Shown: positions 8,974-19,496, numbered from the stretch's first letter. The stretch: DNA of 64,000 nt from Salibacteraceae bacterium (GCA_965267285.1 OZ253948.1:1037480-1101479); one strand, 5' to 3'. The notes: generated by a model from the letters alone, not told the origin. A program made the numbers and translations.

Positions 8974-10137
8974 ATGAGAACCCTGCTTTGTGTCATAGGT
9001 GGACTGATGTTGTATTGCCAAACAATGGCAACAAGTATCGTGAACATCGGAATGTTCTGGGACGGAAGACCTAAAGGCGCGGTTGTGTCCGTTTCGAAAG
9101 GCGCCTACAACCTTATAGGTGATGGACAGAGGAAGATGGAACTCAAGAAGGGCGATGTCGTCCAACTCAATCTCGAGGGAAGAAAAGTAAGGGTTGTGAA
9201 GATGGGGCAGGAGCTAGGATCCTTTACACAGATCAAATTTATCCGACAGTCATGGGGTTCGACCTTCAATATCAAAGCCGTCAACCCTTCCTATGAGCGA
9301 AGGGCTTACAATGACAATTTGTTTGTTTCGACTCAGAGTGGAAGGCTCAAGCTGATCAACAATGTCTACCTCGAGCATTACATTGCGGGAGTAGTTGAAG
9401 CGGAAAGTGGAATCAAGGAAAGCTTCGAATACTATAAGGTCCAGGCAATCATTGCCCGGACTTATGCGCTGAGCAATCTTGGAAAATTCGCTCATATGGG
9501 CTTTAACCTTTGTGACAATGTAGATTGCCAGGTCTACAAGGGAAAAAGTGTTCGCAACCCGGATATCATTCGTGCGGTGAATGCCACCAAGGGGCTTGTC
9601 TTGGTTGATAGCGATATCAATTTGATCAACGCCGTCTTTCATTCAAATAGCGGAGGGTACACGGTTAATTCTGAAGATGCATGGTCTCAGGAGGTGAGCT
9701 ATCTCAGATCAGTGAGGGACTCCTTTAGCCTTGGGCAACCGCACTATGCCTGGGAAGTAACCATCTCGAAGGATAAGTGGTTGAACTATCTCAACAAACG
9801 CTTTGGATACCCAACAGACAATGCAACCTTCGTTGGGGCTGTCACAAATATGAACCCCAATATGCGAAGGCCATACCTCACAGAGTACGATACGAGTATT
9901 TTATTGAAAACCATCCGAAGGGACTGGGGACTAAAGTCAACTTATTTCTCCATACGAGATAGAGGGAGCGATATACTGCTTCAGGGCAAGGGCTTTGGTC
10001 ATGGTGTGGGATTGTCTCAGGAAGGTGCCATGAAAATGGCGAACCTTGGCATGCCATTCAACGAAATCCTTCACTTCTACTATAAGGACATTCACCTTAT
10101 TCACCTCTCGGCGTTGGATTTTTTCCGATCGGAGTAA
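8974..10137 (+). CDS. SpoIID/LytB-domain protein (exported)
   Basis: Signal peptide plus AIIARTYAL, CDNVDCQVYKG, FHSNSGGYT and GHGVGLSQEGA motifs. Confidence 0.85.
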   Translation: MRTLLCVIGGLMLYCQTMATSIVNIGMFWDGRPKGAVVSVSKGAYNLIGDGQRKMELKKGDVVQLNLEGRKVRVVKMGQELGSFTQIKFIRQSWGSTFNIKAVNPSYERRAYNDNLFVSTQSGRLKLINNVYLEHYIAGVVEAESGIKESFEYYKVQAIIARTYALSNLGKFAHMGFNLCDNVDCQVYKGKSVRNPDIIRAVNATKGLVLVDSDINLINAVFHSNSGGYTVNSEDAWSQEVSYLRSVRDSFSLGQPHYAWEVTISKDKWLNYLNKRFGYPTDNATFVGAVTNMNPNMRRPYLTEYDTSILLKTIRRDWGLKSTYFSIRDRGSDILLQGKGFGHGVGLSQEGAMKMANLGMPFNEILHFYYKDIHLIHLSALDFFRSE

Positions 10138-10239: not shown

Positions 10240-11754
10240 ATGCCTAGAACACCAATGATTCAGCTGCTGTTGCCCCTTCTGATGGGAATCCTGTTGGGCC
10301 ATCAGATAGAGGAGGAATGGCCAATGTGGCTGTCGATGATTGCCCTGTTGCTTTGCCTATTGCTCATTTGTTTTCGAAAGCCGGGCTTCTCAGGGATGAT
10401 GCTTCAATTATTCCTACTGCTTTATGGTATGTCTGGTGGTGCCCGCATTGGTCGTATTCCAGATCAACATTTCAGTAAAGGAGACTATCAGCATCTGATT
10501 TGTAGAGTGAATGAGGTAACAAATTACACATGGGGGTGTAGGGGCACGGTTGATGTAATCAAGGTTGTCGATACGCTGGGCAGGATTAGAGAGAAGCGGG
10601 GGCAAATAGTATTTCGGTCATTTCTTGACCCCAATCAATTAAGTATAGGATCAGTATGGCTTCTAAACAGATCGGACATCCGGGAAACAGATACGGCTGT
10701 TCTAGGGGCTGGGTATGCCGCTTACCTTAAGCGCCAAGGCGTCTTTCATTCGGCAACAATCAATAGTATCGAAAACCAGGTAGGCAAGTCCAGCTTGAAT
10801 TTTGCCGAACGAGCAAGGCGAATTATTCGGAGCGCTACGTCTAATCTGGGACTGTCGACTTCAAATACGGCAATTATATATGCGCTGCTAACCGGAGACA
10901 AAGCGGGTATTGATAAAAGCATAAGACGTGACTTTGCACGAAGTGGGGTAGTGCACGTCCTGGCGGTATCCGGTATGCACGTGGGAATGCTGTTTCTCGT
11001 GCTCAATTTCCTTTTCAAATACGCTGTGCGCTCGAAGAAAATAAGAGCAGTATTAATCCTGATTTGCCTTTGGTCTTATTGCGCCGTTGCAGGTTTTAGC
11101 CCTAGCATCTCGAGGGCCTGCACGATGTTTACTTTTATCATTGTAGCGGACTCTTTGGGGCGCAGAACGTCGATCTATAATTCAATTGCCGCGTCCGCAT
11201 TTCTACTCCTGATAATCAACCCGGCCAACTTGCTGGAAATCGGATTTCAGCTTTCGTATTCCGCAGTGATAGGCATAGTATGGATGCATCCAAAGTTAAA
11301 TTCAATGCTGTCCATTGGCATTCCGGTTGTAAAGCCCGTTTGGTCGCTTTGTTGTGTTTCTATTGCGGCACAATTGGGGACGCTTCCTTTGGTTCTATAC
11401 TACTTTGGTCAATTCCCAACCTATTTTCTTATTTCCAACCTGATCACCATTCCCATGATCACCTACGTTTTTTGCACCTCTCTGGCGGCAGTAGTATTGA
11501 GCGTTTGCGGATATTCATTTCCTCAATTACACGCCATATTGGACTATCCGCTATGGTGCTTGAGGGGATTCCTACGGTCGATATCTACCGCCGACTATGC
11601 AGTAGTGAATTGGAACGTAAACGATCTCCTTCACACCAGCCTCATGGTCGCCGTTATCATTTTCCTTTTCCAATTGTGCTTCCAAGGACGGATAAGAAAG
11701 GTGCCACTTGTCCTGGCAACATTGTTGACGCTTCTTGTCCTTCACAATTCTTGA
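10240..11754 (+). CDS. comEC: ComEC/Rec2-family competence membrane protein (channel domain only)
   Basis: Polytopic protein with the conserved ...FARSGVVHVLAVSGMHVG... competence-domain motif. No C-terminal MBL domain is visible. Confidence 0.8.
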   Translation: MPRTPMIQLLLPLLMGILLGHQIEEEWPMWLSMIALLLCLLLICFRKPGFSGMMLQLFLLLYGMSGGARIGRIPDQHFSKGDYQHLICRVNEVTNYTWGCRGTVDVIKVVDTLGRIREKRGQIVFRSFLDPNQLSIGSVWLLNRSDIRETDTAVLGAGYAAYLKRQGVFHSATINSIENQVGKSSLNFAERARRIIRSATSNLGLSTSNTAIIYALLTGDKAGIDKSIRRDFARSGVVHVLAVSGMHVGMLFLVLNFLFKYAVRSKKIRAVLILICLWSYCAVAGFSPSISRACTMFTFIIVADSLGRRTSIYNSIAASAFLLLIINPANLLEIGFQLSYSAVIGIVWMHPKLNSMLSIGIPVVKPVWSLCCVSIAAQLGTLPLVLYYFGQFPTYFLISNLITIPMITYVFCTSLAAVVLSVCGYSFPQLHAILDYPLWCLRGFLRSISTADYAVVNWNVNDLLHTSLMVAVIIFLFQLCFQGRIRKVPLVLATLLTLLVLHNS

Positions 11755-11765
11755 AACGCAGGCAC

Positions 11766-11794
11766 AAAAAAAGGGCTCTGTGCTGAGCCCTTTT
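11766..11794. terminator. Bidirectional rho-independent terminator between comEC and the cassette operon
   Basis: AAAAGGGCTC-tgtgct-GAGCCCTTTT: a GC-rich stem flanked by an A-run and a T-run, in a convergent 61-nt gap. Confidence 0.6.
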
Positions 11795-11815
11795 ACTTGA
11801 CCATTTAATGATCTA

Positions 11816-12337
11816 TTATTCTGTTCCCTGTGTGCTTTCTCCTTCGAATGCGGCGTATTCGTCTTCGTATCCTATCATGATCACCACACATCCTTTTTGG
11901 ATGGTTTTGGTGTCTTCTGAAATAGAGGCCGGAACCAGGAAGTCAATATAAATGGCCGGAATACCCAATTCGATTTCCGGTTCATACGTGAATTGCCCAT
12001 CAGAACTATTGAAGGACGCCAATTCATCTCGCTTCTTGGCAAAAGAGCTCTCGCTATAGATCTTGATAATGATGTCCTGAGGAAGGCTTTCCGTGTTGAA
12101 CACAAACCTGTGGCGCGTGTCAAACATCAATGGAAAGCTGATTTCCTTTCTTTGGTTGTATCGGCGATAGAATATTCGCTGAACAGCCATGTTGGTATAT
12201 CGGTAAGGTACCAGTTCCTTTTTGCACTTCAGCTTGGCTTCCGTTACGTTGCACGTGGCCTTGCCTGTTTGTGGTGTAGTTGCCGCAATAAAGCCAAAGG
12301 CTATAAATCCGGCAGTAAGTACGATTAAACTTCTCAT
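11816..12337 (-). CDS. Cassette protein A, copy 1 (small exported protein with conserved Cys pair; unknown family)
   Basis: Signal peptide. Paralogous to 13240-13695 and 14556-15053 (VPYRY, KEISFPLMFDTRHRFVFNT, IYIDFLV, QKGCVVI). Confidence 0.75.
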   Translation of the reverse strand: MRSLIVLTAGFIAFGFIAATTPQTGKATCNVTEAKLKCKKELVPYRYTNMAVQRIFYRRYNQRKEISFPLMFDTRHRFVFNTESLPQDIIIKIYSESSFAKKRDELASFNSSDGQFTYEPEIELGIPAIYIDFLVPASISEDTKTIQKGCVVIMIGYEDEYAAFEGESTQGTE

Positions 12338-12338
12338 T

Positions 12339-13214
12339 TTACGCTTCCGTTATGGTTGATCTAAGTGTTAAAATTTTCTCGGCAATGGCATCCATGTCTT
12401 CGTCACTCAATTCCAATTCGCTGAAATTGATTCGCCCATCTGCGTCGCGTATGTCCATCTCTTCGTAGTATGTCTTGATACCATTCAGTCCATTCACTAC
12501 ATCATCGATATCTTCAAGATTTCTTTTAGAGCCTTCCAAGGCACCCAACAAATTGTTTAGGATATTCATCTGCTCAATCAATCTCTTAGAGACTGCACCT
12601 TTATTCTCACGATTGAACGCCTTCACACCGAGGTACATACCTTCGATCCAGGCACCGGCAAAAATCACATAGGTCTGTGCCCTCATATCATTTTCTGAGA
12701 TAAAGACATCGGTATTTTCCTGTATTTCCACCAGCAAGTTCAAAATGGAGTCCTGGTTGCCAATATTGGCCTCAAACCTTTCGGCCAACCCATCTTTATT
12801 AAAAATCGAGCCAAACCCAATATTTTCTGACAAATCTTTCACGGCCTTGAGTAGGGCAAGCGAATTCTGAGATTGATCGTTCAGGATACTGTAGGCCATG
12901 TCAGCCGAATAAACACCAAAATTCAGCAGTTGGCTGTTTTTGCTCACAAACTTGCTTGCATTTTCCGGGCTAGCCGTAATGCCGTCGACATATCCGAGTC
13001 CGGACCTCTTGAAAATGGTCCCAATCTGAAGGGCAGAGGGAAGGTAGAAGCTGTGCTCTTCTTCCGGAAAGTCTCCGGATTCTTCCTGGATCATTTCATC
13101 CTGCAACTGTTCTTGCATGTCTTCACTTGATTCTTGAGTCTCGCCTCCACCCCCACAGGAAGGTGCCAAACCCAAGACCAGAACGGCCATCATCAAATAC
13201 AAGAATTTTCTCAT
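12339..13214 (-). CDS. Cassette protein B, copy 1 (lipoprotein with acidic tether; unknown family)
   Basis: Start moved to ATG 13214 (MRKFLYLMMAVLVLGLAPSCGGGG lipobox). Paralogous to 13692-14555 and 15063-15926. Confidence 0.75.
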   Translation of the reverse strand: MRKFLYLMMAVLVLGLAPSCGGGGETQESSEDMQEQLQDEMIQEESGDFPEEEHSFYLPSALQIGTIFKRSGLGYVDGITASPENASKFVSKNSQLLNFGVYSADMAYSILNDQSQNSLALLKAVKDLSENIGFGSIFNKDGLAERFEANIGNQDSILNLLVEIQENTDVFISENDMRAQTYVIFAGAWIEGMYLGVKAFNRENKGAVSKRLIEQMNILNNLLGALEGSKRNLEDIDDVVNGLNGIKTYYEEMDIRDADGRINFSELELSDEDMDAIAEKILTLRSTITEA

Positions 13215-13239
13215 CTTTTTTAGTTTTCGTTGCGCAAAA

Positions 13240-13695
13240 TTAGTGTTTGAAACCCGAATAGAGCATAATACACCCCAATCCTTTTGAATCCCCAGACGAA
13301 TTATCGTTTGAACTGACAATATAATCAATAAATATTCGATTGTTTACCGAGGTTGCCGGAGGGTCATACACTATGAGTTCTTCGCTCGATTGTGCTTCAA
13401 ATATCTTTTTTCGGTCCGGATAATTCACAGGGGCATTCCAGATCTGAACGCTACAACTTCCGTTGAGTTCGCGGGTGTTGAAAATAAGGCGGTACTCCGA
13501 ATCGTGAAAGATGGGAATCTGCAATTCTTTTTTCTGTTCATCAGTGCTTTCCCCGAATCGTGTTGTTTTGAAAGCGTAGTATTGGAAGGGCTTGAGGGAT
13601 TTGGAACATTCTTTTTTGAGCTCTTCCCAGTCGCACTGCTGCCCGTGGGCAAAAGAACCTGCAGACAAAAAGACGATAACCAAAAGGTTTCTCAT
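13240..13695 (-). CDS. Cassette protein A, copy 2
   Basis: Signal peptide MRNLLVIVFLSAGSFAHGQ. Shares KPFQY, KELQIPIFHDSEYRLIFNT, IFIDYIV and KGLGCIM with copies 1 and 3. ATGA overlap with B copy 2. Confidence 0.75.
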   Translation of the reverse strand: MRNLLVIVFLSAGSFAHGQQCDWEELKKECSKSLKPFQYYAFKTTRFGESTDEQKKELQIPIFHDSEYRLIFNTRELNGSCSVQIWNAPVNYPDRKKIFEAQSSEELIVYDPPATSVNNRIFIDYIVSSNDNSSGDSKGLGCIMLYSGFKH

Positions 13696-14555
13696 GATTC
13701 TGATAAGGTGATGTTGTTGCGCACTCGACCAATGATGCCTGTCAGAGCATTGAGCTCCGCCTCGGTCAGTGAATTCTCGTCAAACTGAAATGCGCCTTCG
13801 CTATAGTTCTCTGATGATATAAAAAGTTGGTTGAGTTCAGTGAGTCCTGAAACGAAAGTTGTCAGCTCTTCTGACTGACCAGGGTAGATTGTCAATCCCC
13901 GAATGATGGGCTCCAGCATATAGGCTTGCTCAGAGAGCCTTTTTCCGAGCTCCTCATTCTTGTTTGAACCATAGGAAGTAATGCCTACATACATACCCTC
14001 AATCCAGGCACCTGAGAATATCACCATTGCAGTATGCTCTTCATTGCTGCGTTCCACATACATGTCTGTCTGCTCCTGGACCTGAAGTATGATTTCCATC
14101 ACCGAATCCTTATTTCCTACGTTGGCCTCAAAGCGCTTCAATAAATTGTCTGTATTGAAAATCTCTCCCATTCCAGTCTCTTCAGAAAGCTTCTTCATCT
14201 TGGCGATATACTCCTTGGAGAGCTGATTTTGATCGTTGAGCACACAGTAGAAGAGGTCGGCAGAGTAAACGCCGAAATTCAGGAGTTTGCTCACCCGGGA
14301 GTTGTATTTCTCTACGTTCGATGGACTGTTTGTAAGGCCTTCGGAGAATTCCAGCCCTGATTTTTTGAAAAGGCCTGAAATGTGAAAGGCCGAGGGCAGC
14401 ACGGAACTACTCTCCCTTTCGGGCATCTCCTGCACGGTTTCCTCCTGTGCAAGTTCCTTCGTTTCCTGTTCGATCTGTGAGGTGTCTGCTTGCCCACAAG
14501 AGCAAAGCACCGCTGCAACGGCAACAGACCAAAAAGCAGCTGAAGTTAATCGCAT
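13692..14555 (-). CDS. Cassette protein B, copy 2 (lipoprotein)
   Basis: MRLTSAAFWSVAVAAVLCSCGQ lipobox, an E/Q-rich tether, and shared motifs LNFGVYSAD, LNDQ, RFEANVGNKDS and IFSGAWIEGMYVG. Confidence 0.75.
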   Translation of the reverse strand: MRLTSAAFWSVAVAAVLCSCGQADTSQIEQETKELAQEETVQEMPERESSSVLPSAFHISGLFKKSGLEFSEGLTNSPSNVEKYNSRVSKLLNFGVYSADLFYCVLNDQNQLSKEYIAKMKKLSEETGMGEIFNTDNLLKRFEANVGNKDSVMEIILQVQEQTDMYVERSNEEHTAMVIFSGAWIEGMYVGITSYGSNKNEELGKRLSEQAYMLEPIIRGLTIYPGQSEELTTFVSGLTELNQLFISSENYSEGAFQFDENSLTEAELNALTGIIGRVRNNITLSES

Positions 14556-15053
14556 TTAGACGTTTTTGTACCCTGATCCGAGAACAACGCATCCTTTTTG
14601 GATCACGTCGTCGTCAGTTTTTTCGACTGCAGGGATGATGTAGTTGATGTACACTCGATTTTTCAGATAGGTATCGTCCAACTCGAAGCTGAACATCTTT
14701 TCTGTTGAAGTTTTGATCAATTGTGCATCACCTTTTCTGAGTCCCATGGGTTGATCATATATCTCTACTGTGATATCCTTCGGAAGGCCTTCGGTATTAA
14801 TCACAAACTTGTAGTCCGTGTCGAAGAATAATGGTATCGCTACTTCCTTCACCTGGTCGTAATTTTTGAAAGTGATCCTGGTGGTTGTTGTTCTTTCATA
14901 CCGAAAAGGCACCATTTCCTTTTTTACTGCAGCCGAGGACTCCTCGCGATTGCAGGTATCGTTTATTCCGGAGTCGTCTTTTTTACCTCCGGAGGCAGAA
15001 ACTGAAACAATTACAGCTAGGATTAACAGAGATTTTATGATGGGTAATTTCAT
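14556..15053 (-). CDS. Cassette protein A, copy 3
   Basis: Signal peptide. VPFRY, KEVAIPLFFDTDYKFVINT, VYINYII and QKGCVVL motifs. Its stop TAA abuts the ATG of B copy 2 (TAAATG). Confidence 0.75.
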   Translation of the reverse strand: MKLPIIKSLLILAVIVSVSASGGKKDDSGINDTCNREESSAAVKKEMVPFRYERTTTTRITFKNYDQVKEVAIPLFFDTDYKFVINTEGLPKDITVEIYDQPMGLRKGDAQLIKTSTEKMFSFELDDTYLKNRVYINYIIPAVEKTDDDVIQKGCVVLGSGYKNV

Positions 15054-15062
15054 GACTGTATT

Positions 15063-15926
15063 TTAAGAGTTTGACGTAATGACGTTGCGCATGCTTTCTA
15101 CACGTGAAGAGATTTCATTTACGTGCTCCTCGGAGATGTTGTAACCAACATTCCGATTGTCATTGTCTACAATTTCTGCGTCTTCGTAGTACTTCAGCAG
15201 ATCTGAAAGTGAGCCGCGAACAGAAATCAACTTCTCGTTTTCCAATCCGCTCTGTTCCAAAAGTCCTACCAAGTTTTTCAAAATGTTCATCTGTTCGGCC
15301 AACCTGGCTGGAATCGCATGATCGTCTTCCCTTGGTGAATTTGCCCCGAGGTACATCCCTTCAACCCATCCCCCTGAGAAAATGATGGCCTCCAGGTCGT
15401 CCTGGTCGTTTTCGTGGATGTGGAAGTCAATGCGATCCTGTACATCAATAAGAATCGACAGAACCGAGTCCTGGTTGCCGATGTTGTTCTCAAATCTGTC
15501 GAGTAGGTTAGTTCCCTCAAAGATGGATGACATACCAATATCGTCCGCAACCAATTTCATCGCTTTGAGATATTCTTTTGCTTGCTGTGCCTGGTCGTTC
15601 AGCACGCAATAAGTCATATCGGCAAAGTACATACCCAACATCAACGACTTGTCAATTCTGGTTTCGTAGTTGGACACACCGGCTGGGTCGTTGGTGATTC
15701 CATCTTGAAATTTGAGTCCTGCACTTCGGAAAATCGAACCTATCTGGAGTGGGCTGGGTAGCATGAAGATTTCATCGGGCTCATCCTCCTCTTCCAATTC
15801 CATTTCGATTTCTTCCCCCGAAATCTCATCCTGGATTTCATCCTGAGTATTTTGCTGGTCGCTTCCACCACAGGAGGTGATAAAAAGCATGAAAACCAAG
15901 CAACTAAACAAACTAATTATTCTCAT
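15063..15926 (-). CDS. Cassette protein B, copy 3 (lipoprotein)
   Basis: The listed start 15944 is TTG. ATG 15926 gives MRIISLFSCLVFMLFITSCGG (lipobox). Very acidic tether, and the same core motifs as copies 1 and 2. Confidence 0.75.
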   Translation of the reverse strand: MRIISLFSCLVFMLFITSCGGSDQQNTQDEIQDEISGEEIEMELEEEDEPDEIFMLPSPLQIGSIFRSAGLKFQDGITNDPAGVSNYETRIDKSLMLGMYFADMTYCVLNDQAQQAKEYLKAMKLVADDIGMSSIFEGTNLLDRFENNIGNQDSVLSILIDVQDRIDFHIHENDQDDLEAIIFSGGWVEGMYLGANSPREDDHAIPARLAEQMNILKNLVGLLEQSGLENEKLISVRGSLSDLLKYYEDAEIVDNDNRNVGYNISEEHVNEISSRVESMRNVITSNS

Positions 15927-15999
15927 CAAAAGGTGATTTTTCAATGGCTACGAATATAAAGAAAGAATATGGATTAACAATACCAAAATGCCCTTGCAG

Positions 16000-16017
16000 A
16001 AAGGCTTTCAAGCCTTT
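16000..16017. promoter_or_regulatory. 18-bp palindrome AAAGGCTT-tc-AAGCCTTT in the divergent control region
   Basis: Perfect 8-bp arms, read directly. It overlaps the candidate -33 TTTG of the antiporter promoter. Possible regulator site. Confidence 0.3.
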
Positions 16018-16044
16018 GGAAATTGAGAAAGTTTTATATTTTTG
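16015..16044 (+). promoter_or_regulatory. Candidate promoter of the antiporter gene (TTTG-N18-TATTTTTG)
   Basis: Matches the Bacteroidota -33 TTTG / -7 TAnnTTTG architecture, 31 nt upstream of ATG 16076. Confidence 0.4.
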
Positions 16045-16075
16045 GTTGCATTGGTAACCCTTTTAAAAACTCAAT

Positions 16076-17410
16076 ATGAACCTATTAACCGTCCTGCTTA
16101 ACTCTGGAGGGGATACCGTAGGAGCCATGAGTGTGCTTGACCTCTTGGCGTTACTTGTCTTCCTCGCAGCGGTTTTCACCTTCATCAACATTCACTACTT
16201 AAAGTTACCTGCTACGATCGGGCTCATGATCCTGGCGCTCGCCATGTCCATCATTATCGTAGGTATTGGGATGCTTTATCCACCGCTTAGGGAGGGTGCG
16301 GAAGGTATCATGAAGAACTTTGATTTCACCGAGGTACTACTCAATATTATGTTGAACTTCCTGCTCTTCGCAGGCGCCTTACATGTTGATTTCCAGAAAC
16401 TAAAGGAAGAATTTGCACCTATCCTTGTACTGGCCTTTTTTGGTACTCTTTTGAGTACATTCCTCGTCGCCGTTGGGATATACTACGTGATAGACTTCCT
16501 CCAGGTCGGGTTTGAAGTGAAGTTCATTCACTGTCTGCTCTTTGGGGCTCTGATATCACCTACGGACCCCATTGCGGTGCTGGCTATTCTCAAGACAACA
16601 AATATCTCTAAGAACTTATCCATCAAGATCGAAGGGGAGTCACTCTTCAACGATGGTATTGGTGTTGTGGTCTTTTTGACTATCCTCTCCATTGCCACGG
16701 CTTCAAGTGCCGGTGGTGGAGATGCTGGTGTGGAGCCGATGACTGTTCTCGGGCTCTTTGGACAAGAGGTGTTCGGGGGAGTTATGATGGGGCTTGCACT
16801 TGGTTTCTTTGGGTATTACATCCTTGAAATCATCGACAATGAGCATATGGAGCTCGAGGTTTTAACAACGTTATCGCTTGTGCTTGTTGGCGGTCAGGTG
16901 GCTGCCTCCATCCACGTCTCCGGGCCGCTGGCAATGGTTACCATGGGTCTGGTGATAGGGCAGGGCAATAGTGAAGATACGGAACAGGAAGGTATTGCCG
17001 GTGAATATGTTCTGAAGTTCTGGGAGCTGGTCGACGAGGCCATGAATGCCATACTGTTCATCCTGATAGGGCTGCAGATACTGATCATTACCTTCGAACT
17101 CGACTTCATATATGCAGGCATTATTGGAATATTCGTTGTACTCGCCTGTCGGTTCGTGGGTATTGGTATACCATTGATCATCATGCAATTCTTCCGGAAG
17201 ATGGATCGTGGTACCATACCGATATTGACCTGGGGAGGCCTGAGAGGAGGACTGTCAGTAGCCCTGGCACTCTCGCTTCATGCGAAATTGGGACAGGAAG
17301 GCTCTGCTGTTGCGGACTTAATTACCGCCATCACTTATTGTGTTGCACTATTCTCCATCCTTGTACAGGGTATGACCATTGAGAGACTGGTTAAGCGGTA
17401 CGCTTCTTAA
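16076..17410 (+). CDS. Cation:proton (Na+/H+) antiporter, CPA1/NhaP-like
   Basis: About 12 TM. Typical motifs FGALISPTDPIAV and ESLFNDG. Confidence 0.85.
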   Translation: MNLLTVLLNSGGDTVGAMSVLDLLALLVFLAAVFTFINIHYLKLPATIGLMILALAMSIIIVGIGMLYPPLREGAEGIMKNFDFTEVLLNIMLNFLLFAGALHVDFQKLKEEFAPILVLAFFGTLLSTFLVAVGIYYVIDFLQVGFEVKFIHCLLFGALISPTDPIAVLAILKTTNISKNLSIKIEGESLFNDGIGVVVFLTILSIATASSAGGGDAGVEPMTVLGLFGQEVFGGVMMGLALGFFGYYILEIIDNEHMELEVLTTLSLVLVGGQVAASIHVSGPLAMVTMGLVIGQGNSEDTEQEGIAGEYVLKFWELVDEAMNAILFILIGLQILIITFELDFIYAGIIGIFVVLACRFVGIGIPLIIMQFFRKMDRGTIPILTWGGLRGGLSVALALSLHAKLGQEGSAVADLITAITYCVALFSILVQGMTIERLVKRYAS

Positions 17411-17546: not shown

Positions 17547-19496
17547 ATGAAACAACTTTTCTCTCTCACCCTACTACTGGGTGTTTTCACATCATCTTTT
17601 GGGCAAGCCAAGATCACCGAAGATGCCTCTGGTACTACTACGGACCACGACATCTGCGCAATAAGCAACGCCATTGTTTATGGCTTTAACGGCACAACAG
17701 ATTCCATTGCAGAATACTGGTGGAGGATCTACGATTCCACCAAAACAAATTGGATTTATTACGCAACCGTTTCTGGGTCAAATGTGGCTTCGCCCGTCTC
17801 CCGAACCTTTGATGGGACTAAGATCATGCCCAACTCAAACACGACTACTTTTTCGAATACCAATAGCCCAAACCTCGCTTCCAACACCCCTTCTGGAAAG
17901 ACCAAACTCATCTTTTCATTCAACTGGAGGAACAAGGGATCTGGGACTTGGAACCAACTTGAAGACACAATTACCATCTGGAACTATCCTGCTGCAACGC
18001 CAAATCTTGGGAATGATACTGGTTATTGCGTAGGAAGCGGTATGCAGCTCGATGGCGGCATCTATGATACCTATAGCTGGTCTAATGGTGCCAATACAAG
18101 ATACGTATTCGTCTTTATGCCCGGTACATACAATGTGACTGTCAGTACTCCAAACGGGTGTTCTACGGCTTCGGATACGATCGTGGTGTCTGAGTGGCAA
18201 CTGCCCAATGTGAATCTTGGACCTGATACCTCATTTTGCGATGGAGATACCATTATGATCGACGGTGGAAATTATGCGAGCTACAGTTGGAGTACGACCG
18301 ACACATCGAGATTTCTGAGTGTTTCCAGCCCAAATATCTTCATTCTCACTGCGACCGACACCAATGGTTGTATCAATTCGGATACGATCTCGGTAACGCA
18401 GCTATCGCTTCCTTCTGTGAGCTTGGGTCCGGATACCAACATCTGCGATGGTGACGTGATCAGCATTTCTCCTGGTCCCAATTATTCATCCTATTCGTGG
18501 AGTACAGGGAGTATCACATCTAGTATTGTGATCGGATCAGCTGCCAACTACATGGTAACTGTAAGCGATGCCAACGGATGTTTTAATTCCGACGACCTCA
18601 CATTGGGAATCTACGCGCTTCCAACACCTCAGATTAGCAATGACACCATAGTATGCCCGGGTGAGAGTGTTACTGTCAGTTGCGGTTCGTTCACCTCTTA
18701 TTCCTGGAGTACGACAGCAACGAGTTCGACCATAAACGTTATGAACCCCGGCGATTATCGAGTAACAGTTACGGACGTCAATGGTTGTAGTGCTGCTTCC
18801 GACACAATGACCCTATCCAATTTTGCCCCACCATTGCCAGGCGTGTCAAACGATACAAGTTTTTGTGATGGAGATAGTGTGGTCATATCAGTAGGGACGC
18901 ATTCAATATACGCCTGGAGCACAGGAGCCACAAGCCAGTCCATTACAGTTTCTACGGCCGGCACCTACACTGTGACCGTAACGGATATGAATGGATGCTT
19001 TGAGAGCGATTCGGCTACGATAGGAGTTTTTGCACTTCCGGTGGTCGATCTCGGAAATGACACGACCATTTGCGTAGGAGATACCATTTCTATTTCCGGG
19101 GGTTCCTTTGCGACATATACGTGGAGCACGGCGGAAACCACAGAGAACATTTCGGTTTCCGACTCAAACATCTATTGGGTTTCGGTGATTGATCTCAATG
19201 GATGCGCCGGTTCCGATACCATGCAAGTGATGCTTGACGGCTGTGGGATAGGATTGGGTGAGCAGGTCCAACGTTCACTTAGGGTTTACCCAAACCCGTT
19301 TAGGAGCAATTTGACAATAACCTCCGATAAGGACATTGAGCAAATCTCCTTCTTTGACGCATCCGGAAGACTTGTCTATCGAAGGACAACTTCCGGTAAG
19401 GTTGCAAACGTTGAGTCAGACCTTCCAACCGGACTGTACTTCTTGGAAGTGAAAATGAACGGGGAATCGCACCGCATGCCATTGGTGCGCGAATAG
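17547..19496 (+). CDS. T9SS-sorted secreted repeat protein (type A C-terminal sorting domain)
   Basis: Signal peptide, six ~70-aa Cys-containing repeats, and a C-terminus LRVYPNPFRSNLTI...GLYFLEVKMNG... typical of Por_Secre_tail (about 19269-19493). Confidence 0.85.
   Translation: MKQLFSLTLLLGVFTSSFGQAKITEDASGTTTDHDICAISNAIVYGFNGTTDSIAEYWWRIYDSTKTNWIYYATVSGSNVASPVSRTFDGTKIMPNSNTTTFSNTNSPNLASNTPSGKTKLIFSFNWRNKGSGTWNQLEDTITIWNYPAATPNLGNDTGYCVGSGMQLDGGIYDTYSWSNGANTRYVFVFMPGTYNVTVSTPNGCSTASDTIVVSEWQLPNVNLGPDTSFCDGDTIMIDGGNYASYSWSTTDTSRFLSVSSPNIFILTATDTNGCINSDTISVTQLSLPSVSLGPDTNICDGDVISISPGPNYSSYSWSTGSITSSIVIGSAANYMVTVSDANGCFNSDDLTLGIYALPTPQISNDTIVCPGESVTVSCGSFTSYSWSTTATSSTINVMNPGDYRVTVTDVNGCSAASDTMTLSNFAPPLPGVSNDTSFCDGDSVVISVGTHSIYAWSTGATSQSITVSTAGTYTVTVTDMNGCFESDSATIGVFALPVVDLGNDTTICVGDTISISGGSFATYTWSTAETTENISVSDSNIYWVSVIDLNGCAGSDTMQVMLDGCGIGLGEQVQRSLRVYPNPFRSNLTITSDKDIEQISFFDASGRLVYRRTTSGKVANVESDLPTGLYFLEVKMNGESHRMPLVRE
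17988..19244 (+). repeat. Six tandem ~69-70-aa protein repeats (LG.DT..C.GD...I..G....Y.WSTG......V...G.Y.VTV.D.NGC...D)
   Basis: Manual alignment of the translated ORF. Each unit has two conserved Cys. The repeats are diverged at the DNA level. Confidence 0.8.

Follow-up and report, generated by a model that had tools for sequence, protein, structure and literature searches.

The window analyzed in this study is the whole 64,000-nucleotide (nt) stretch of DNA from a Salibacteraceae bacterium (GCA_965267285.1 OZ253948.1:1037480-1101479), and the study is concerned with a gene array located at 11816-15926 within it. The list of open reading frames (ORFs) places six minus-strand ORFs in the array, which alternate between two families, a predicted lipoprotein (B) and a predicted exported protein (A), and which are referred to as pairs 1 to 3 (Table 1). 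The original prediction for this DNA, made by a model from the sequence alone, had described the same six ORFs, and the ORF list bears out their coordinates, strand and alternation. The junctions computed from the ORF coordinates (9, 0, -4, 25 and 1 nt, the negative value being an overlap) also match that description exactly.

Table 1. Features of the B-A array and its flanks, with positions counted from the first nucleotide of the window. SPI, signal peptidase I; T9SS, type IX secretion system; aa, amino acids.
Feature	Position	Strand	Description
SpoIID-like gene	8974-10137		Flank; ComEC stands between it and the array
ComEC	10240-11754		Flank, convergent with the array
Bidirectional intrinsic terminator	11766-11794		Common to the array and convergent ComEC; A4-GGGCUC-AGCACA-GAGCCC-U7
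A3	11816-12337	-	Predicted SPI-exported jelly-roll, 173 aa
B3	12339-13214	-	Predicted lipoprotein, 291 aa; 38-residue acidic tether; B copy used for the model
TAATTTTG, exact TAnnTTTG match	13235-13242	-	Overlaps the A2 stop, 28 nt upstream of B3
A2	13240-13695	-	Predicted SPI-exported jelly-roll, 151 aa, 4 Cys; start overlaps the B2 stop by 4 nt (ATGA)
B2	13692-14555	-	Predicted lipoprotein, 287 aa; lipobox LCS-C; 33-residue acidic tether
A1	14556-15053	-	Predicted SPI-exported, 165 aa; N-terminal helix and 8-strand jelly-roll; conserved Cys34/Cys155 pair
B1	15063-15926	-	Predicted lipoprotein, 287 aa; ATG start, TTG at 15944 also open
Divergent intergenic region, B1/Na+/H+ exchanger gene	15927-16075		Presumed site of the array promoter
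Na+/H+ exchanger gene	16076-17410		Flank, divergent from the array
T9SS-sorted protein gene	17547-19496		Flank

Homologues of both families were collected in several searches. A word-indexed search returned 186 B homologues and a profile search returned 134 A homologues, almost all of them unnamed or labeled "hypothetical"; the few taxon labels among them are Salibacteraceae, Crocinitomicaceae, Vicingaceae and Flavobacteriales. An exhaustive profile search identified 2,774 B representatives (clusters at 50% identity) at E <= 1e-3, 946 of them at E <= 1e-30. The top 150 of these representatives are about 265-311 aa long, apart from a handful of shorter, apparently truncated entries. In addition, a scan of one genome per GTDB species gave 242 relatives, the best match being 65% identical. 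The nearest relatives of the window array are found in Flavobacteriales UBA1986 and Salibacteraceae metagenome-assembled genomes. Among cultured bacteria, the module is carried by Crocinitomix algicola, Acidiluteibacter ferrifornacis, Vicingus serpentipes and Fluviicola, among others. The carriers of the module are a clade of aquatic Flavobacteriales (Salibacteraceae, Crocinitomicaceae, Vicingaceae, Cryomorphaceae and Acidiluteibacter), together with more distant Bacteroidota.

For the analysis of linkage, ORFs were called in all fetched loci and both families were searched for with hidden Markov models. In 81 of 83 loci, A and B are neighbors on the same strand; in the remaining two, the locus is interrupted by the end of a contig. 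The most frequent arrangements are BA (36 loci), AB (20 loci) and ABABA (14 loci). BABABA, the arrangement of the window, is shared with one locus in UBA1986 (L005) and one in Salibacteraceae (L006), for a count of three, and the others are BAA (three loci), BABA (two), BAB (two) and ABA (one). B is followed by A or an A-like gene in the distant loci L083, L087, L088 and L090, and partially in L084. Co-occurrence of A and B had been put forward in the original prediction as something to survey in Bacteroidota, and the pair proved to be linked both in these 81 loci and in the distant branches. Most genomes carry a single copy beside thrS-infC or other housekeeping genes. In two cases, however, contigs of the same assembly (L017/L034 and L019/L021) hold an ABABA array and a separate BA pair that forms its own clade in both trees, so the copy number of a genome can exceed the count at one locus.

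The neighbors of the module across loci are lineage-specific housekeeping genes, with thrS in 43 loci, infC in 36, ComEC in 20 and a Na+/H+ exchanger in 18. Since these neighbors change by lineage, the Na+/H+ exchanger beside the window array reflects synteny and gives no functional hint; Na+/H+ exchanger, ComEC, thrS and infC were all rejected as functional partners for the same reason. No toxin, integrase or transposase was found as a conserved neighbor among the examined loci, and searches of IMG/VR contigs, GenBank phages and PLSDB plasmids gave no relatives of the module, which is chromosomal and passed on vertically. A second, divergent B-A pair (310 and 156 aa) is present at L087:11067-13678 (minus strand), immediately downstream of the gene for a 1,034-aa ABC-2-type ABC transporter and overlapping with it. 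The first pair on this contig borders genes for a hybrid histidine kinase and response regulators. The transporter link does not recur in L084, L088 or L090 and was set aside. Crocinitomicaceae also carry a soluble, deep-branching B paralogue with an SPI-type signal (B'; L035:14746-15543, and the same position in L042), which immediately follows thrS-infC-rplT and immediately precedes a 1,131-aa gene. Judged by its translation, the product of this gene resembles a BNR/sortilin-type repeat protein.

The similarity of the three copies was measured by identity counts in MAFFT alignments. B1 to B3 are 33-40% identical over their full length and 46-51% identical over the core that runs from LPS to EGMYxG, and A1 to A3 are 24-39% identical. 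The conserved cores had been estimated by hand as about half identical, which holds for the B core. Most of the shared motifs named in the original prediction are present, but some of them are confined to two of the three copies. For example, B2 reads LPSAFHIS and B1 reads LMLGMYFAD, and the "KG.GC" motif fits A2 alone, with A1 and A3 reading KGC.

The relationships of the copies were obtained from neighbor-joining trees. B1 and A1 group with L005, L006 and L037, and B2/A2 and B3/A3 group with the matching positions of L005, L006 and the ABABA loci. There are positional orthologues of all three pairs in L005 and L006, and of A1 together with pairs 2 and 3 in the 14 ABABA loci. The A1 orthologues occupy position 2 in BABABA loci and position 1 in ABABA loci, and B2 clusters with the position-2 B of ABABA loci; the ABABA arrangement is therefore a BABABA array after loss of B1. 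The trees of both families give the topology ((1,3),2), and thus the unit that was duplicated is B-to-A and not A-to-B. The orthologues of the window genes across genera are 46-70% identical and their synonymous sites are saturated. Saturation prevents the calculation of a ratio of nonsynonymous to synonymous substitution (dN/dS), and, taken with this level of identity, it indicates that the triplication is old and that the six genes are under purifying selection. An old and maintained triplication had been proposed from the sequence, and the positional orthologues and the saturated sites agree with that proposal. The same orthologue identities, the hundreds of homologues of each family and the confident AlphaFold2 (AF2) models also establish that the six ORFs are not chance ORFs.

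Co-evolution was analyzed with distance matrices of A, B and thrS over 42 single-pair loci and with Mantel tests. The A and B distances correlate with r = 0.87, whereas their correlations with thrS are only 0.50 and 0.56, and the partial correlation of A and B given thrS is 0.83 (Mantel p <= 5e-4). With mean distances of 1.25 and 1.08, respectively, A and B evolve 3-4 times faster than thrS, whose mean distance is 0.32. The linkage, the congruent trees and the correlated distances all support the earlier suggestion that A and B form a cognate unit. We consider it very probable that the locus arose by ancient tandem triplication of an autonomous operon unit, B followed by A, that is inherited vertically.

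The junctions inside the array are too short to hold independent promoter-terminator pairs. None of the terminator-like sites found lies in an array junction (eight were found overall, with 4.5 +/- 2.2 expected), and no convincing internal terminator was identified. The terminal hairpin at about 11766-11794 folds at -21.2 kcal/mol (z = -3.4 relative to shuffles), as expected from the hairpin originally noted there. Because the junctions are tight and there is one strong terminator, the single transcript that had been predicted is plausible. The sequence TAATTTTG is the sole exact match to TAnnTTTG, which we take to be the Bacteroidota -7 promoter consensus, on the minus strand within 11700-16100, where the background is 0.22 per kb per strand. 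Either an internal promoter for the third pair or a coincidental match could account for it. The intergenic region 15927-16075 contains no exact TAnnTTTG. This region, between B1 and the Na+/H+ exchanger gene, does hold a perfect 8+2+8 palindrome, AAAGGCTT-TC-AAGCCTTT, at 16000-16017, which looks like an operator; by a rough estimate, about 0.002 such repeats would be expected by chance per 149 nt. The palindrome is not kept upstream of the orthologous arrays in L005 or L006 and was rejected as an operator. An Rfam scan of 11000-17000 identified no RNA elements. Among the flanking genes, the product of 17547-19496 is a 649-aa protein with a T9SS C-terminal sorting domain and about 6 tandem modules of about 75 residues, each with Y(S/T)WSTG...D.NGC.

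The array proteins could not be assigned to named families. The six proteins gave no significant match in Pfam-A, NCBIfam r20, PADLOC or PHROGs, and a Pfam scan of 121 A, 119 B and 83 more distant B homologues identified nothing consistent. The best library matches of A and B have E >= 0.001, are inconsistent among members and are mostly located in the signal peptide or linker; in PADLOC and PHROGs, nothing was better than E = 0.008 for the array proteins. Sequence searches of the PDB with profiles at three alignment depths were empty or spurious. For example, a shallow A profile matched protein G, and these matches were discarded when they disappeared with a deeper profile. In fold searches, which had been recommended along with the original prediction, B has no match in the PDB or BFVD and A has generic jelly-roll matches only. 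The statement that neither family falls in a named domain is consistent with the family and PDB sequence searches. By exclusion, A and B are classed as unclassified protein families, new at the protein-family level. Conserved envelope gene pairs of unknown function are common in Bacteroidota, and a new mechanism is not part of the claim.

Signal peptides and lipoboxes were called by heuristic rules together with conservation in the family. All six array proteins begin with a Lys/Arg n-region followed by a hydrophobic run of 11-20 residues, which agrees with the signal peptides originally assigned to them. In the three A copies and in the sampled A homologues, MK or MR precedes 13-19 hydrophobic residues, and a lipobox-like match occurs in only 2 of 121 A homologues. 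With an n-region, an h-region, a small-residue cleavage site and no lipobox, A is predicted to be a soluble protein exported by Sec and cleaved by SPI. The lipid Cys of B is invariant in all 119 homologues, 108 of which follow a lipobox rule of the PROSITE PS51257 type. A lipobox had also been assigned to each of the three window copies. This stands for the invariant Cys and for B1 (ITS-C) and B2, which fit the PROSITE-type rule, but B3 (APS-C) departs from the rule with a non-canonical Pro at -2. B is predicted from these features to be a bacterial lipoprotein and a substrate of signal peptidase II.

The lipid Cys of B is followed by a low-complexity tether with, in the family, a median length of 35 residues, 36% Asp/Glu and almost no Lys/Arg. 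The tethers of the window copies are 33-38 residues long (that of B1 has 37 residues, 16 of them Asp/Glu and none Lys/Arg), and the net charge of mature B1-B3 is -21 to -37. The lipoprotein export signal (LES) of Bacteroidota is C-X-K-(D/E)2 or Q-A-(D/E)2 at +2 to +5 (PMC5080379). The LES is absent at these positions from B1-B3 and from the B family consensus. From the lipid Cys, the copies read CGGSDQ (B1), CGQADT (B2) and CGGGGE (B3), with no adjacent acidic pair, and across the family position +2 is G/A and D/E is present in 54% of sequences at +3, 28% at +4 and 24% at +5. The LES-bearing surface lipoproteins of Bacteroidota share with B a lipobox Cys and a negatively charged N-terminal stretch after it, but their defining K-(D/E)2 or Q-A-(D/E)2 is missing from B. 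Because the LES is absent, B is favored, with low confidence, as a periplasm-facing lipoprotein on the inner face of the outer membrane. Surface exposure is less likely for the same reason, although the LES is itself loosely defined.

The AF2 model of B3, built on 119 sequences, is all-alpha, with a predicted local distance difference test score (pLDDT) of 81 and a predicted template modeling score of 0.79. Residues 1-28 and 42-54 fall below pLDDT 50, and the first 50 residues average about 40-50. The domain of B3 (residues 61-289) has eleven helices of 6-22 residues each, and the B domain comprises about 235 residues. A fold match was defined as Foldseek E <= 1e-3 or a template modeling score (TM) >= 0.5. 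The B3 model had no match by this definition in the PDB (best E = 0.22, TM <= 0.30) or in BFVD (best E = 0.43), and hhalign of the two halves of B identified no internal repeat.

Several B residues persist where the identity between members drops to 22-32%: the lipid Cys, Pro59, Gly100, Tyr102, Asp105, Tyr108, Trp189, Glu191, Gln215 and Arg285. Asp155 is nearly invariant. On the helices 92-111, 178-199 and 202-216 the conserved residues are spaced at i, i+3/4, which places them on single helical faces, and the conserved polar and aromatic residues may converge on one site in the model. A ligand or enzyme site in B is possible but doubtful. The original prediction had taken the three pairs to be specificity variants. 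All three window copies keep the invariant site residues of the family, and thus any differences in specificity must fall outside that core.

The A model (pLDDT 85) consists of one helix (residues 36-47) and eight strands that fold into a jelly-roll beta-sandwich about 130 residues long. The Cys34/Cys155 pair is invariant, and there are few conserved polar residues. Around the N-terminal Cys (residues 31-40) the pLDDT is about 91, so an intramolecular disulfide fits better than a free connector peptide. The Foldseek matches of A are generic jelly-rolls with target-normalized TM of 0.46-0.61, namely PliG, a phage cement protein, Ena2A, YPM, the p24 GOLD domain and CUB. The top match is PliG, the periplasmic inhibitor of g-type lysozyme (4dzg; E = 3.6e-4, TM 0.39/0.52, 10% identity, root-mean-square deviation 5.2 A), and unrelated jelly-rolls score as well as or above it (GOLD 0.61, Ena2A 0.58, CUB 0.56). 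PliG resembles A as a small, signal-peptide-bearing, periplasmic beta-sandwich of the jelly-roll type; A differs in its additional N-terminal helix, its conserved Cys pair and its constant pairing with a lipoprotein. Membership of A in the PliG family was rejected by sequence, with no Pfam or NCBIfam match and no PDB match of the A profile, including 4dzg, at E <= 10. It was also rejected by fold, the 4dzg match being no more specific than those to other beta-sandwiches.

The Ena1/Ena2 spore-appendage subunits, p24 GOLD, CUB and phage cement proteins have an eight-stranded sandwich topology in common with A, and Ena subunits, like A, have one conserved Cys close to the N-terminus and a second within the body of the protein. 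However, these generic jelly-roll modules have no sequence relation to A. An assignment of A as an Ena-type fiber subunit (DUF3992) was rejected on the lack of a Pfam match, the confidently modeled N-terminal Cys region and the generic nature of the Foldseek likeness. No surface export route for assembly of A into fibers is apparent, and A has no T9SS C-terminal domain.

The reading that we prefer beyond the gene unit is a membrane-tethered periplasmic B:A complex formed around the conserved polar-aromatic site of B, and for this whole picture we regard the chances as evenly balanced. Physical pairing of A and B by itself is slightly favored. B would be anchored to a membrane, for which the inner leaflet of the outer membrane is the likeliest candidate, and the flexible acidic tether would hold its helical domain in the periplasm. 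A, stabilized by its disulfide, would bind B as a soluble periplasmic partner. The conserved polar-aromatic residues of B would provide the working surface for a ligand, polymer or partner, and the three pairs would be sub-functionalized paralogues that have kept the same core site.

Systems in which a lipoprotein works with a soluble periplasmic partner include Pal-TolB, YfiB-YfiR, PorK-PorN and LpoB, the last with a long disordered linker. As in the module, a gene for a lipobox protein with a flexible linker stands beside the gene for a Sec/SPI-exported soluble protein in a tight operon, and the products act in the periplasm while tethered to a membrane, as is presumed for the module. However, the module belongs to none of these systems, which have no sequence or fold relation to A or B, and its tether is unusually acidic. 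Also, unlike the comparison set, the module has no conserved inner-membrane or cell-wall partner gene nearby, and its A-B binding is putative.

Several observations weigh against a tethered B:A complex of this kind. Hidden paralogy between the AB-order and BA-order clades, and not physical co-adaptation, may partly inflate the A-B correlation; despite this possible inflation, the A and B genes share one history. A1 is kept under apparent constraint without B1 in the 14 ABABA loci (L001-L003, L007-L012 and L014-L018, with a few duplicate contigs), and the Vicingus loci L039, L070 and L080 have one B followed by two A genes. Since A persists without its own adjacent B, a 1:1 stoichiometry of A and B is not strict. 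The B' paralogue of L035 and L042 has no lipobox, no acidic tether and no adjacent A. In addition, the single pocket suggested for the conserved B residues is read from helical periodicity only. As to localization, the very acidic N-terminus and the loose definition of the LES mean that B may be exposed at the surface, and it may also be retained in the inner membrane.

A more specific form of the tethered complex would make B a periplasmic enzyme or receptor of new fold that acts on an envelope polymer or lipid, with A as its obligate co-evolving regulator. Its three insulated pairs would represent three specificities, and the whole would be an unrecognized envelope-maintenance or defense system of non-Flavobacteriaceae Flavobacteriales; we consider this form unlikely. 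A related explanation, which we consider quite unlikely, is that B represents a new all-alpha enzyme fold whose tether gives it access to a periplasmic polymer such as peptidoglycan, and that A is a co-evolving regulator or inhibitor. Outer-membrane-anchored lytic transglycosylases under Ivy-type proteins, and long-linker lipoproteins of the LpoB type, are parallels for such a system. The family-wide conservation of Asp105, Asp155, Glu191, Gln215, Arg285, Tyr102, Tyr108 and Trp189 is more like an active site than a scaffold, and the disordered tether of about 35 residues and the paucity of conserved polar residues in A would also suit an enzyme with a regulator. However, B has no structural or sequence likeness to a hydrolase, lyase or transglycosylase and no recognizable catalytic motif. 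Consistent cell-wall neighbor genes are also lacking, the SpoIID gene of the window being located behind ComEC and not a conserved neighbor. The same residues bear on another explanation, that the module is a defensive inhibitor system in which A, alone or held by B, inhibits exogenous wall hydrolases or proteases, for example the g-type lysozymes of fish, molluscs and grazers, and in which the three pairs cover different enzymes; an inhibitor role had also been raised in the original prediction. The conserved polar residues sit in B and not in A, and neither protein has a sequence or profile relation to any inhibitor family. PliG is the best Foldseek match of A, but at the identity and deviation given above it is no better than unrelated jelly-rolls; to our knowledge, no lipoprotein partner accompanies PliG, PliC or PliI, which are single-gene systems. 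The fast evolution of A and B relative to thrS, the expansion of the module into paralogues in one lineage and the envelope location of both proteins would be expected of such inhibitors, which we nevertheless regard as very unlikely here.

Two further explanations concern the association of the genes. A and B could be independent and merely syntenic, or one of them could be a dispensable passenger, as the unequal copy numbers in ABABA, BAA and BAB loci, the soluble B' without an adjacent A and the existence of both orders AB and BA might suggest. We consider this highly improbable because the two genes are adjacent in essentially every locus, down to 22-32% B identity, while the other neighbors change, because their junctions are a few nt long or overlapping, and because A and B have a common duplication history. 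Tandem, divergent, paralogous small envelope proteins also have a superficial likeness to acquired immunity-gene clusters, so the array could be a mobile set of orphan immunity genes against contact-dependent or type VI secretion system toxins, or an anti-phage system. This explanation is effectively refuted and has a negligible probability: the copies are positional orthologues, most genomes hold a single copy among housekeeping genes, no relatives occur on viral contigs, phages or plasmids, and, as noted above, there is neither a close PADLOC or PHROGs match nor a toxin, integrase or transposase as a conserved neighbor.

The envelope of Bacteroidota departs from the proteobacterial textbook case, for example in its BAM complex, in TamL, in LolA/B and in the export of surface lipoproteins. 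An A/B complex with a defined activity, if it exists, would be a new component of this envelope. The B domain, with a confident all-alpha model, no solved relative and about 2,800 clusters at 50% identity, is a target for structure determination and for a Pfam entry. Lastly, the co-duplicating B-to-A pairs provide a natural system for the insulation of paralogous protein pairs.

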